Assembly: GCA_963735785.1 (NCBI GenBank)
Contig: CAVTMH010000003.1
Span: 613,708-677,707, forward strand
Source of the DNA: an uncultured Chloroflexia bacterium
Lineage (GTDB): Bacteria > Chloroflexota > Limnocylindria > Limnocylindrales > CSP1-4
Reading direction: 5' to 3'
DNA: 64,000 nt
The translations under genes were made by a program, and so were the position numbers. Below the pieces are notes generated by a model that saw only the letters and a program-made list of their open reading frames with translations, was not told where the DNA came from and ran no database searches. Positions 37,626 through 41,369 of the stretch are shown here, in pieces. Position 1 is the first letter of the stretch. Each line of letters begins with the position of its first letter.

Positions 37626-40600
37626 ATGACCACGACCACCGAACGAGCGCCCGTCGGCCCGTACACGCAGGCCACGCGACTCGCCCGGCTCGACGAGTTG
37701 CTGCGCGAGCGGATCGTCGTGCTCGATGGTGCGATGGGCACGCTGATCCAGAGCTACGGGCTCGATGAGAGCGACTTCCGGGGCCAGCGCTTCGGGGCAC
37801 ACCCGACCGATGTGCGGGGCGACAACGAGCTGCTCAACCTCACCCGCCCCGACATCGTCCTGGCCATCCACGGCGCCTATCTCGAGGCCGGCGCGGACAT
37901 CATCGAGACGAACACGTTCACCGCGAACGCCCTCGCCCAGTCCGACTACGACCTCACCGCTGTCGTTCGCGAGATGAACGTCGAGGCCGCGCGACTGGCC
38001 CGGCGGGCCGCCGATGCCGCGGAGGCGACCGATCCCTCACGACCGCGCTACGTGATGGGCGCGCTCGGGCCGACGCCGCGAACCGCCTCGATCTCGCCGG
38101 ACGTGAACGACCCGGGCGCCCGCAACGTGACGTTCGACGAGCTCGCGGCGGCCTATCAGGAGGCGGCCGAAGGATTGATCGAGGGCGGCTCGGACCTGCT
38201 CGTCATCGAGACGATCTTCGACACGCTCAACGCGAAGGCCGCGATCTTCGGCGTGGAAGCGGCCTACGACAAGGCTGGCCAGCGCATCCCGCTCATCATC
38301 TCGGGCACGATCACGGACGCCTCGGGCCGGACCCTGTCGGGCCAGACCGTCGACGCATTCTGGGTATCCGTCGCGCATGCCCGTCCCATGGCCGTCGGGC
38401 TCAACTGCGCCCTGGGCGCTCGCCAGCTGCGTGGCCACGTCGCGGACATGGCGCGCATCGCGGGGATCCCCGTCATCGCCTACCCGAACGCGGGCCTGCC
38501 CAACGAGTTCGGCGGATATGACGAGGTGCCGGCGACCACTGCCGAACTGCTCGGACAGTTCGCCCGGGACGGACTGGTCAACATCGCGGGCGGTTGCTGC
38601 GGCACGACACCGGCACATGTCCGGGCGATCGCAGACGCGGTCGAAGGGCTCCCGCCTCGCGCAGTCCCGGCGGTCGCACCGCGCACCCGTCTGGCGGGCC
38701 TCCAGTCGCTCACGATCCCGCAGCCGGGAGGGCTGTTCGTGAACGTCGGAGAGCGCACGAACATCACCGGGTCGCGCCGCTTCGCGAAGCTCATCCTCGA
38801 CGACCGGTTCGAGGATGCGGTCGAGGTCGCCCGCCAGCAGGTCGATGCCGGTGCGCAGCTCATCGACGTGAACATGGACGAGGGCATGCTCGACTCGGTC
38901 GCTGCGATGTCGCGCTTCCTGCGGCTGCTTGCGAGCGAGCCGGACATCAGCGTCGTCCCGGTCATGGTCGATTCGTCGCGCTGGGACGTCATCGAGGCCG
39001 GGCTCAAGTGCCTGCAGGGCAAGGGCGTGGTCAACTCGATCTCGCTCAAGGAGGGCGAAGCGGCGTTCCTCGAGCACGCCCGGCTCTGCCGGCGCTACGG
39101 CGCAGCGGTCGTCGTCATGGCATTCGACGAGGCTGGCCAGGCGGATACGGCCGATCGGAAGGTGGAGATCGCCCGGCGGGCGATTCGGCTGCTGCGTGAG
39201 GACGCCGGGTTTCGAGCCCGAGGACATCATCATCGACCCGAACATCTTCGCGATCGGGACGGGCATCGAGGAGCACGCCGGCTACGCGGTCGCCTACATC
39301 GAGGCGACGCGCCGGATCAAGCACGAGCTGCCGGGCGTGCTGGTCTCGGGCGGCGTGTCGAACGTGTCGTTCGCGTTCCGCGGCAACGATCCCATCCGCG
39401 AGGCCATCCATTCGGTCTTCCTCTACCACGCGATCGGGGCCGGGATGGACATGGGCATCGTCAATGCCGGGGCGCTGGCGATCTACGACGACATCGAGCC
39501 CGGACCTGCGCGAGCTCGTCGAGGACCTCGTGCTCGATCGGCGCCCGGACGCCACGGAGCGGCTGCTGGCCGTCGCCGAGCGCTACGCCGGCGATGCGCA
39601 CGAGCAGCGGTGAGGACGCCGACACGCTCGCTTGGCGCTCGCTGCCGATCGGGGAACGCCTGACGCATGCGCTCGTGGCCGGGCTCGACGCCTTCATCGT
39701 CGAGGACACCGAGGAAGCTCGTCTCGCCGCTGCCCGACCGATCGAGGTCATCGAGGGTCCGCTGATGGACGGCATGAACGTCGTCGGCGATCTGTTCGGG
39801 GCCGGGCAAGATGTTCCTGCCGCAGGTCGTCAAGAGCGCCCGAGTGATGAAGAAGGCGGTCGCCCACCTCATCCCGTTCATCGAAGCGGAGAAGGACCCG
39901 GGCGCCAGCCGGACGAACGGCCGTATCGTGATGGCCACGGTCAAGGGCGACGTCCACGACATCGGCAAGAACATCGTCGGGGTCGTGCTCGGCTGCAACA
40001 ACTACGAGGTCATCGATCTCGGGCGTCATGGTCCCCGTGGCTGCGCATCCTCGAGACGGCGCGTGAGCAGGGCGCGGACATCATCGGGCTGTCGGGGCTG
40101 ATCACCCCGTCGCTCGAGGAGATGCGCCACGTCGCCTCCGAGATGGAACGCGAGGGCTTCACGATCCCGCTGCTGATCGGCGGCGCCACGACCTCGCGGA
40201 CCCACACGGCGGTCCGCATCGAGCCCGAATACCACGGTCCGGTCGTCCACGTCGCGGACGCCTCGCGTGCCGTCGGCGTGGCGGGCGCGCTCGTGGACGT
40301 GGCCGCAGCGGGATGCCTTCGCGGCCGGGATCCGCGCGGAGTACGAGACGGTCCGGGTGGAGCGCGGCGCGCGCGAGGAGCGGATCGCCCGGCACCCGAT
40401 CGCCGAGGCCCGACGCCATCGACTCGCGATCGACTGGACCGACGTCACGCCGCCCGTCCCGAGCTTTCTCGGTGTCCGGACGTTCGCCGACCACCCGCTC
40501 GAGGACCTCGTCGAGCGCATCGACTGGACGCCGTTCTTCGCGACCTGGGAGATGAACGGCCGGTACCCGGCGATCCTGACGCGATCCGGTCCTGGGCCCC

Positions 40601-41369
40601 GCGGCGTCGTCGCTGTACAACGACGCCCGGGCGCTGCTCGCCCGGATCGTCGAGGACCGGTCGCTCCGGTCGTCGGCGGTAGTCGGGTTCTGGCCGGCCA
40701 ACAGCGTCGGCGACGACATCGAGCTCTACACGGATCCCGGCGCGGCATGGCTCGGCCGGCACGATCCATACGCTGCGCCAGCAGATGGTCAAGCCACCCG
40801 GACGGCCGAACCTCGCGCTCGCCGACTTCACCGCGCCACGCGAGACCGGCCTCATCGATCACGTCGGCGGGTTCGTGAGCACGGCCGGGCACGGCCTCGC
40901 CGAGATCGAGGCCCGGTTCAAGGACGCCAACGACGACTACTCGGCGATCCTCGCCAGCGCGCTCGCCGATCGCCTGGCGGAGGCCTTCGCCGAGCGGCTC
41001 CACGAGCTCGTCCGTCGCGAGCTGTGGGGATACGCCCGCGACGAGGCCCTCTCGAACGACGACATCATCGCCGAGCGCTACCAGGGCATCCGGCCGGCAC
41101 CGGGCTATCCCGCCTGCCCGGACCATACCGAGAAGGGCGAGCTGTTCCGGCTGCTCGGGGCGGAGTCGAAGATCGGGGTCCGCCTGACCGAGTCGTACGC
41201 GATGTGGCCGGGCGCGGCGGTGAGCGGCTACTACTTCTGGCACCCGCAGGCGACGTACTTCGGCCTGGGCCGGATCGGGCGGGACCAGCTCGAGGACTAC
41301 GCGCACCGGAAGCTCACATCCGCCGCGTCGATGGCCCGTTGGCTCGCTCCGAACCTGGCGGACGATTGA
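37626..41369 (+). pseudogene. metH: Methionine synthase, cobalamin-dependent; disrupted by nine +1 frameshifts between ~39204 and ~40757
   Basis: N-terminal Hcy- and pterin-binding domains (37626-39204) are one intact frame. After that, MetH-homologous protein ([17 protein letters not shown]…; [14 protein letters not shown]…; [13 protein letters not shown]…[22 protein letters not shown]; [18 protein letters not shown]…[26 protein letters not shown]; [29 protein letters not shown]…; [18 protein letters not shown]…; [19 protein letters not shown]…; [23 protein letters not shown]…WLAPNLADD) is recovered only by moving +1 frame nine successive times. Every shift sits where a single base appears inserted, e.g. 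GGGTT[T]CGAG, CCCG[G]ACCTG, CCGG[G]CAAG, CTCG[G]GCGTC. Confidence 0.75.

Follow-up and report, generated by a model that had tools for sequence, protein, structure and literature searches.

Nine +1 frameshifts in metH are best explained by mixed-strain consensus errors rather than by decay of the gene

Does the interrupted metH gene of this bacterium document the loss of cobalamin-dependent methionine synthase, or is the deposited DNA sequence itself at fault? Within the window, by which the whole stretch of 64,000 nucleotides is meant, metH is not one uninterrupted reading frame but contains nine +1 shifts between positions 39205 and 40741. In a DNA alignment, the intact genes of two close relatives, L081 and L082, are each 3735 nt long. 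The initial annotation had reported nine shifts and left the choice between an actively decaying gene and a highly localised assembly or consensus artefact. All nine shifts are present, at or no more than about 16 nt from the coordinates first given, and four independent lines of evidence concur. They are very probably errors of the deposited consensus, arising from tandem SNP alleles of two mixed strains, and not mutations in the organism. The open reading frames of the locus are as follows.

37626..41369, + strand: metH (cobalamin-dependent methionine synthase), 3744 nt with its stop codon, nine of these bases being surplus
37371..40682, + strand: spurious ORF of 1103 aa, in which real MetH segments alternate with Arg/Pro/Gly-rich out-of-frame sequence
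40785..41369, + strand: C-terminal metH fragment ORF of 194 aa, identical to database protein P0122

At about 70% GC stop codons are rare, and only for this reason does the spurious ORF run uninterrupted through the shifted region. On the source contig of 2,358,839 bp (NCBI and ENA), P0122 is annotated as a gene of its own, and the fragment is seen on one contig only, the source itself.

In a three-frame translation, recognisable MetH sequence runs through the frames 0, 1, 2, 0, 1, 2, 0, 1, 2 and 0. A Viterbi frame tracker based on codon usage and trained without homology switches frame within metH at 39201, 39497, 39593, 39802, 40020, 40309, 40580 and 40733; the switch at 40020 represents two merged shifts that lie 21 nt apart. 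Each junction was pinpointed by single-base deletion scanning against a hidden Markov model (HMM) of 79 MetH sequences. This procedure and the DNA alignment were used in place of tblastn, which on its own merged high-scoring pairs over short segments and blurred the junctions. The alignment of metH with L081 and L082 contains exactly nine 1-nt gaps, every one of them an extra base in the window, at 96-97% identity between the window and L081. Between 35477 and 43241 no indel other than the nine in metH separates these two sequences. The nine insertions are listed below; each doublet takes up the wobble position of the codon named, followed by the two codons that it can be resolved into.

39206..39207, + strand: insertion 1, C added (39205 or 39206); Ala codon 527, doublet CG, GCC or GCG
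39501..39502, + strand: insertion 2, G added (39502 or 39503); Pro codon 625, doublet CG, CCC or CCG
39598..39599, + strand: insertion 3, G added, unlike either neighbour; Ala codon 657, doublet GC, GCG or GCC
39803..39804, + strand: insertion 4, C added (39802 or 39803); Ala codon 725, doublet CG, GCC or GCG
40020..40024, + strand: insertion 5, G added (40021-40023); two readings, Leu codon 797 as CT[CG] or Gly codon 798 as GG[GC]
40042..40043, + strand: insertion 6, T added, unlike either neighbour; Ala codon 804, doublet TG, GCT or GCG
40307..40308, + strand: insertion 7, G added, unlike either neighbour; Ala codon 892, doublet AG, GCA or GCG
40581..40582, + strand: insertion 8, C added, unlike either neighbour; Thr codon 983, doublet GC, ACG or ACC
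40741..40742, + strand: insertion 9, C added, unlike either neighbour; Gly codon 1036, doublet CG, GGC or GGG

The single extra bases, each causing a +1 shift, can be placed at 39205, 39502, 39598, 39802, 40021, 40042, 40308, 40582 and 40741, in the contexts GACGCCGGG, GCCCGGAC, ATGCGCAC, GGGCCGGG, CTCGGGCG, GGCTGCGC, GCAGCGGG, GACGCGAT and CCGGCGCG. These contexts share no common motif, and neither a stop codon nor a rare codon lies alongside. This bears on programmed recoding, in which full-length MetH would still be made by way of nine +1 ribosomal frameshift or transcriptional slippage sites. Such a scheme could draw on the perfect coding potential kept by every segment and on the single direction of all shifts. 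It is effectively refuted by the lack of a slippery motif, rare codon or stop common to the nine contexts, and in close relatives a single frame suffices for the same protein. To our knowledge, bacterial genes with programmed shifts have one or two at most.

Removal of the nine surplus bases yields a MetH product of 1244 aa. It is 98% identical to the intact P0001, 93% to P0002 and 91% to P0003, all of 1244 aa, and scores 2066 bits against the HMM from the 79 intact MetH sequences. Five Pfam domains are full length and far above the curated cut-offs: S-methyl_trans PF02574 (residues 31-339), Pterin_bind PF00809 (375-613), B12-binding_2 PF02607 (676-747), B12-binding PF02310 (764-855) and Met_synt_B12 PF02965 (955-1226). 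The repaired protein has in this respect the five-module architecture of the known enzyme (homocysteine binding, pterin binding, B12 cap, B12 binding and AdoMet activation), as well as 98% identity to an intact homologue; the difference is that no single frame of the deposited sequence can encode the enzyme. The cofactor motifs GLNC258, GGCCG322, DVHDIG774, SGL821 and RPAPGYP1153 are present, which we take to be the zinc-ligand cysteines, the DxHxxG/SxL B12 ligand triad and the RxxxGY AdoMet motif. The pterin-binding domain, initially described as intact in the deposited sequence, is not: junctions 1 and 2 (codons 527 and 625) fall within or just past Pterin_bind, as numbered in the repaired protein, and the unrepaired ORF covers only positions 1-164 of the 244 in the profile. 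The organism itself almost certainly has an intact, functional MetH of 1244 aa.

What kind of event adds nine single bases and leaves the protein recoverable? In each of the nine cases the extra base differs from the base beside it, and removal of either restores the same protein, as in GCG→GC[CG] or ACG→AC[GC]. All of these doublets occupy wobble positions of fourfold-degenerate codons (Ala five times, Pro, Leu/Gly, Thr and Gly). In three cases the two bases correspond to the alleles of the relatives: Pro codon 625 is CCC in L081 and CCG in L082, Gly codon 798 is GGC and GGG, and Thr codon 983 is ACG and ACC, respectively. A random insertion forms such a synonymous doublet with p=0.43 per site, so that nine of nine corresponds to p=5e-4, a value to be read in the knowledge that the doublet hypothesis was framed after inspection of these same nine sites; the independent test consists of five sites in L081 only (p=0.015).

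That independent cluster lies on a 1.05 Mb contig named contig_5633 of ERZ25039586, from a relative 93% identical. Extra bases occur at L081 positions 21873, 22071, 22427, 22756 and 23289, where they hit genes for an ABC ATPase and a binding protein; the same genes are full length in the window. All five sites form synonymous doublets, including CAGG, which reads as CGG or AGG, both Arg. Combined with the window, p falls to 8e-6. The signature thus recurs in another assembly at an unrelated locus, and two viable synonymous alleles per error, the pattern expected of mixed strains, can be written at every one of the nine window sites and the five L081 sites. Among 30 high-GC loci, only the window and L081 carry tight one-directional clusters of shifts.

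The initial annotation had attributed most sites to the expansion of short homopolymers, an interpretation that is mostly wrong. Only four of the inserted bases belong to a run, of 2 bases in three cases and of 3 in one, and L081 has the same GGGTTT at site 1. The other five differ from both neighbours and stand outside any run, on which grounds slippage in homopolymers was dismissed as a cause. Pairs of different bases at synonymous positions point instead to mixed-allele consensus errors, rather than to homopolymer miscalls or replication slippage.

The remainder of the window is essentially clean, as had been stated at the outset: same-strand frame switches outside metH coincide with stop codons, with two exceptions, an isolated -1 shift at about 9382-9384 and a probable gene overlap of 42 nt at 14761. 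The initial annotation had noted a shift of opposite direction in the MFS gene at 9377. The G4 run at 9384-9387, where the -1 shift lies, gives it the look of a classic homopolymer under-call. A comparable indel density elsewhere, named beforehand as the refutation test, was absent across the 64 kb window; a cluster of this kind did turn up in the assembly of a relative, where another gene is hit. The remaining indels that separate the window from L081 resemble real evolutionary indels, since they are intergenic, at gene ends or multiples of 3 inside genes. The one-way bias and the confinement to part of metH are, as the initial annotation held, the informative features.

Confinement alone would also agree with a generic unpolished or low-coverage patch, in which few noisy long reads or a skipped round of short-read polishing left random or homopolymer errors in place. 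The errors are localised in an otherwise clean window, residual indels of long-read consensus sequences are known to frameshift genes (PMC9262707), and the -1 shift at the G4 run fits an under-call. Arguing against this possibility is the form of the errors. Raw-read errors should bring deletions and substitutions and ignore codon phase, whereas metH shows nine insertions and no deletion, with all nine hetero-doublets at synonymous positions (p=5e-4, as above) and five of the nine outside runs. Nor are non-synonymous changes in excess on the window's branch, which has 2 in 514 codons, as does L081. This explanation is considered unlikely.

Real inactivation of metH would have to be very recent and would consist of nine true 1-nt insertions, the cell relying on MetE or external methionine. 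The bases do stand in the deposited sequence, gene calling of the source splits the gene (P0122), and no second copy of metH was found within the 64 kb window. Nine independent neutral indels would be accompanied by many substitutions, with a non-synonymous to synonymous ratio near 3:1. Instead, the shifted region of the window differs from L081 by 54 synonymous and 7 non-synonymous codons; assigned to branches, the window has 18 synonymous and 2 non-synonymous changes and the intact L081 has 22 and 2. In the 5' half of metH, the comparison with L081 gives 38 synonymous and 9 non-synonymous differences, of which 10 and 1 belong to the window's branch. Selection on the shifted region is not relaxed. 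Differing codons relative to L081 amount to 0.119 per codon in the shifted region, against 0.089, and to 0.118 in the unshifted tail. Substitution density was discarded as a marker of a divergent tract, being uninformative: the shifted region is slightly higher and the tail equally high, a point that counts against a mixed-strain tract.

Bacterial pseudogenes are usually deletion-biased, contrary to the nine insertions seen here, and mutation would not be expected to single out synonymous positions. The same signature appears in a different gene of another assembly. All relatives from L001 to L082 have a single metH ORF of about 3.7 kb, and the closest ones all keep an intact gene for 1244 aa. 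A scan of genome contigs returned, among the matches listed, distant species representatives of at most 68% identity (Gemmatimonadota and others), which served as intact references. Among metagenome contigs, neither a doublet-tolerant 44-base pattern nor a 29-mer common to the window and L081 retrieved a member of this clade, and Rfam revealed no riboswitch or other RNA near metH. Taken together, the synonymous changes, the lack of deletions, the doublets and the intact repaired protein speak against an actively decaying gene, which is very unlikely, and the reliance on MetE and altered B12 economy deduced from decay fall with it.

In a variant of this explanation, the insertions would be real and would stem from one joint event, such as error-prone repair or recombination-associated synthesis over a mismatched heteroduplex that left tandem doublets and recently inactivated metH. 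A similar event would then have struck the ABC transporter of the related lineage. This appears extremely unlikely.

Based on the synonymous doublets at all nine sites, the restriction to insertions, the unrelaxed selection and the replicate in L081, the artefact option of the initial annotation is favoured, and the best explanation is that the cluster is not a real biological feature. The insertions very probably originated from the merging of two co-occurring strains and not from gene decay. According to this model, reads from two strains that differ at synonymous sites would have been combined along roughly 1.5 kb towards the 3' end of metH; this tract may have arisen, for example, by recombination import in part of the population. 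At nine SNPs a consensus or polishing step would have chosen neither X nor Y and written them side by side as XY. Writing both alleles adds one base and advances the reading frame by +1 each time. By simple likelihood a consensus caller should usually favour one allele over XY, which suggests some caution about this step. The size of the contig (2.36 Mb) and the nature of the closest relatives suggest that the source is a long-read metagenome assembly. The assembler Flye merges co-occurring strains into a single consensus (PMC8302730), and polishers often have problems in heterozygous regions (PMC8092372). A literature search for both alleles written in tandem yielded general statements only and no description of this signature.

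The organism should accordingly be scored as possessing a functional B12-dependent methionine synthase, and neither MetE dependence nor an altered B12 economy should be deduced from this locus. Clusters of frameshifts in the same direction can mislead metabolic reconstructions of metagenome-assembled genomes and counts of pseudogenes. Insertions only, confined to 1-2 kb and forming synonymous hetero-doublets, provide a cheap flag that requires no reads, and a route of repair, for mixed-strain consensus errors.

The metH cluster can be set beside several known systems. With decaying bacterial pseudogenes it shares a conserved gene broken by multiple frameshifts, but selection is unrelaxed, deletions and in-frame stops on the true path are absent, the motifs are kept and the events are codon-phased. 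With collapsed heterozygous or multi-strain consensus sequences, in which an assembler blind to strains fuses near-identical ones, it has in common that a local tract of mixed alleles would explain both the localisation and the allele-like doublets (PMC8302730, PMC8092372); it differs in that the tandem insertion of 1-nt alleles is not described there and in that the two strains are here inferred. As with the residual indels of Nanopore and PacBio assemblies, single-base indels split a conserved gene into ORFs (PMC9262707), and comparison with intact homologues restores it (PMC9262707; proovframe preprint 10.1101/2021.08.23.457338). Such residual indels are typically homopolymeric, deletion-leaning and scattered genome-wide, whereas those in metH lie mostly outside runs, are all insertions, fall within 1.5 kb and occupy synonymous positions.

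Three-frame translation follows the product of metH (37626..41369, plus strand), the gene for the B12-dependent methionine synthase, from the ATG at 37626 to the stop at 41367-41369 through frames 0, 1, 2, 0, 1, 2, 0, 1, 2 and 0, that is, through nine shifts, each of +1. The GC content is about 70% across the whole window, and an ORF of 1103 aa (37371..40682) spans most of the shifted region. Its openness is only apparent, as its translation alternates recognizable MetH stretches with out-of-frame stretches rich in Arg, Pro and Gly. The same staircase was obtained with a codon-usage Viterbi frame tracker trained only on the long high-GC3 ORFs of the window. 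The tracker placed switches at 39201, 39497, 39593, 39802, 40020, 40309, 40580 and 40733, with the switch at 40020 merging two shifts 21 nt apart. Elsewhere in the 64 kb, its same-strand switches lie at most about 10 nt from the stop of the upstream frame and are ordinary gene boundaries, with two exceptions, at about 9382 (a lone -1 shift) and at 14761. The nine shifts and their restriction to metH, both reported in the initial annotation, are therefore confirmed.

The first exception lies in a gene for a DHA2-like MFS transporter (about 8520-10100, plus strand), at 9377-9390. The frame changes at ...YVTFSY/(R)GILFQNVLGY, where a G4 run is located (9384-9387); addition of one G restores a plausible frame. 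The shift, whose direction opposite to those in metH had already been noted, resembles a typical homopolymer under-call, or else genuine slippage, and is different in kind from the metH insertions. At the second exception (14719-14761, minus strand) the stop of the upstream gene follows 42 nt past the switch, which probably reflects two genes overlapping by 42 nt rather than a frameshift. The window also contains a tRNA-Sec gene (17910-18002, minus strand; Rfam RF01852, 68 bits), which agrees with the previously noted selB and fdhA in that a selenocysteine-dependent formate dehydrogenase system appears to be encoded at the locus, and a second tRNA (57607-57680, minus strand).

A search with the repaired protein identified P0001, an intact MetH of equal length (1244 aa) and 98% identity encoded on a 1.05 Mb contig, and the likewise 1244-aa homologues P0002 (93%) and P0003 (91%). 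The DNA loci of the first two, L081 and L082, are syntenic with the window, and L081 aligns with it at 93% identity across 23 kb. metH comprises 3744 nt in the window versus 3735 nt in both relatives, and the three-way alignment contains exactly nine gap columns, each corresponding to one surplus base in the window. Single-base deletion scanning against an HMM of 79 intact MetH sequences placed every junction identically.

Surplus bases in metH (window position, strand, base, doublet in brackets)
39205, plus, C: GC[CG]; codon 527
39502, plus, G: CC[CG]; codon 625; CCC/CCG in L081/L082
39598, plus, G: GC[GC]
39802, plus, C: GC[CG]
40021, plus, G: CT[CG] or GG[GC]; GGC/GGG in L081/L082
40042, plus, T: GC[TG]
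40308, plus, G: GC[AG]
40582, plus, C: AC[GC]; ACG/ACC in L081/L082
40741, plus, C: GG[CG]

Homopolymer expansion, initially suggested for most sites, does not describe these insertions, because five of the nine bases match neither neighbour and the others create runs of only two (three sites) or three bases (one site). Nor is the pterin-binding domain (residues 375-613) intact, as had been assumed: the shifts at codons 527 and 625 lie within or just past it, and the deposited ORF covers only profile positions 1-164 of 244.

Between 35477 and 43241 the alignment with L081 reveals no indel beyond the nine in metH. The remaining indels between the two loci lie outside genes or at their ends or, where they fall within genes, have lengths divisible by three, as is the case for genuine evolutionary indels. 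A 2.9 kb gene of unknown function (31548-34454, plus strand; 997 aa in L081; no Pfam hit on record) contains eight of them at 31756-33015 (3, 3, 6, 9, 3, 3, 3 and 6 nt), which, in contrast to the metH insertions, are genuine in-frame length variation. Near the 5' end of a minus-strand gene (45423-47006) the window differs by +1, +3 and +2 nt over 145 nt (46858-47002; net +6), probably as a result of real N-terminal variation or an alternative start site. L082, which is more distant than L081, is missing the alpha/beta-hydrolase and luciferase-like monooxygenase genes that border the surroundings of metH both in L081 and in the window (34.5-35.5 kb and 42.2-43.2 kb), small content differences amid otherwise conserved synteny.

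A decaying metH with an altered B12 economy, the biological alternative, is not supported. All five Pfam domains are full length in the repaired protein, which also keeps the zinc-ligand, DxHxxG, SxL and RPxxGYP motifs. With codon changes polarized by L082 as the outgroup, the shifted region acquired 18 synonymous and 2 non-synonymous changes on the window branch, and 22 and 2 on the branch of the intact L081 gene. Overall, the window and L081 differ by 54 synonymous and 7 non-synonymous changes in this region and by 38 and 9 in the 5' half. A gene unselected for long enough to gather nine independent indels would be expected to carry many non-synonymous changes, and bacterial pseudogenes are generally deletion-biased. 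The few non-synonymous changes and the exclusive occurrence of insertions (9/9) therefore do not support a pseudogene.

In the frame of the relatives, every extra base falls at the wobble position of a 4-fold-degenerate codon and forms with its neighbour two differing bases. Deletion of either of these adjacent bases restores the frame and yields an identical protein at 9/9 sites, compared with 43% for random insertions into metH (p=5e-4). At three sites the doublet bases are the alleles present in L081 and L082. Codon phase should have no bearing on mutation or on random errors in reads, but it is respected by the consensus of two strains differing at synonymous SNPs.

L081 (ERZ25039586 contig_5633) has a one-directional staircase of its own (21350-23735, minus strand), matching window 48977-51366. 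Five 1-nt extra bases (L081 21873, 22071, 22427, 22756 and 23289) account for it. They disrupt the genes for an ABC ATPase and a periplasmic binding protein, each of which is full length in the window; the corresponding gene calls in the L081 record (fragments of 196, 143 and 88 aa) are probably artefactual. All five are synonymous doublets, one of them being CAGG, in which the Arg codons CGG and AGG are merged. Taken alone, these five sites have a probability of 0.015; for all fourteen it is 8e-6. The frame tracker was also run on 30 high-GC loci: tight clusters were confined to the window and L081, and each of the other loci yielded 0-3 scattered candidates.

The 194-aa database protein P0122, a member of the P0002 cluster, is identical to window ORF 40785..41369 and present on one contig only (2,358,839 bp; NCBI, ENA). 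That contig is therefore the source of the window; gene calling on it already splits metH, and P0122 does not count as a second, separate observation of the frameshifts. The large contig and the names of the relatives' contigs (contig_5633, ctg4072040_10x_l) suggest a long-read metagenome assembly. The doublets at all nine sites, the unrelaxed constraint and the replicate in L081 support the localized consensus artefact already considered in the initial annotation, for which a more specific cause is proposed. We infer a strain mixture in which a short tract, of about recombination-import length, would have varied among members of the sampled population. During assembly the strains would have been collapsed into a single consensus, and the consensus step or the polisher, the presumable source of the doublets, would have written both alleles in tandem at nine SNPs.

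The metH frameshifts are almost certainly not a biological feature and their biological interest is therefore low; the doublet cluster is of some use as a signature for quality control. A literature search did not find the exact tandem-allele signature described and provided general support only: long-read consensus indels give rise to frameshifts (PMC9262707), co-occurring strains are collapsed to one consensus by Flye (PMC8302730), and heterozygous regions frequently cause trouble for polishers (PMC8092372).
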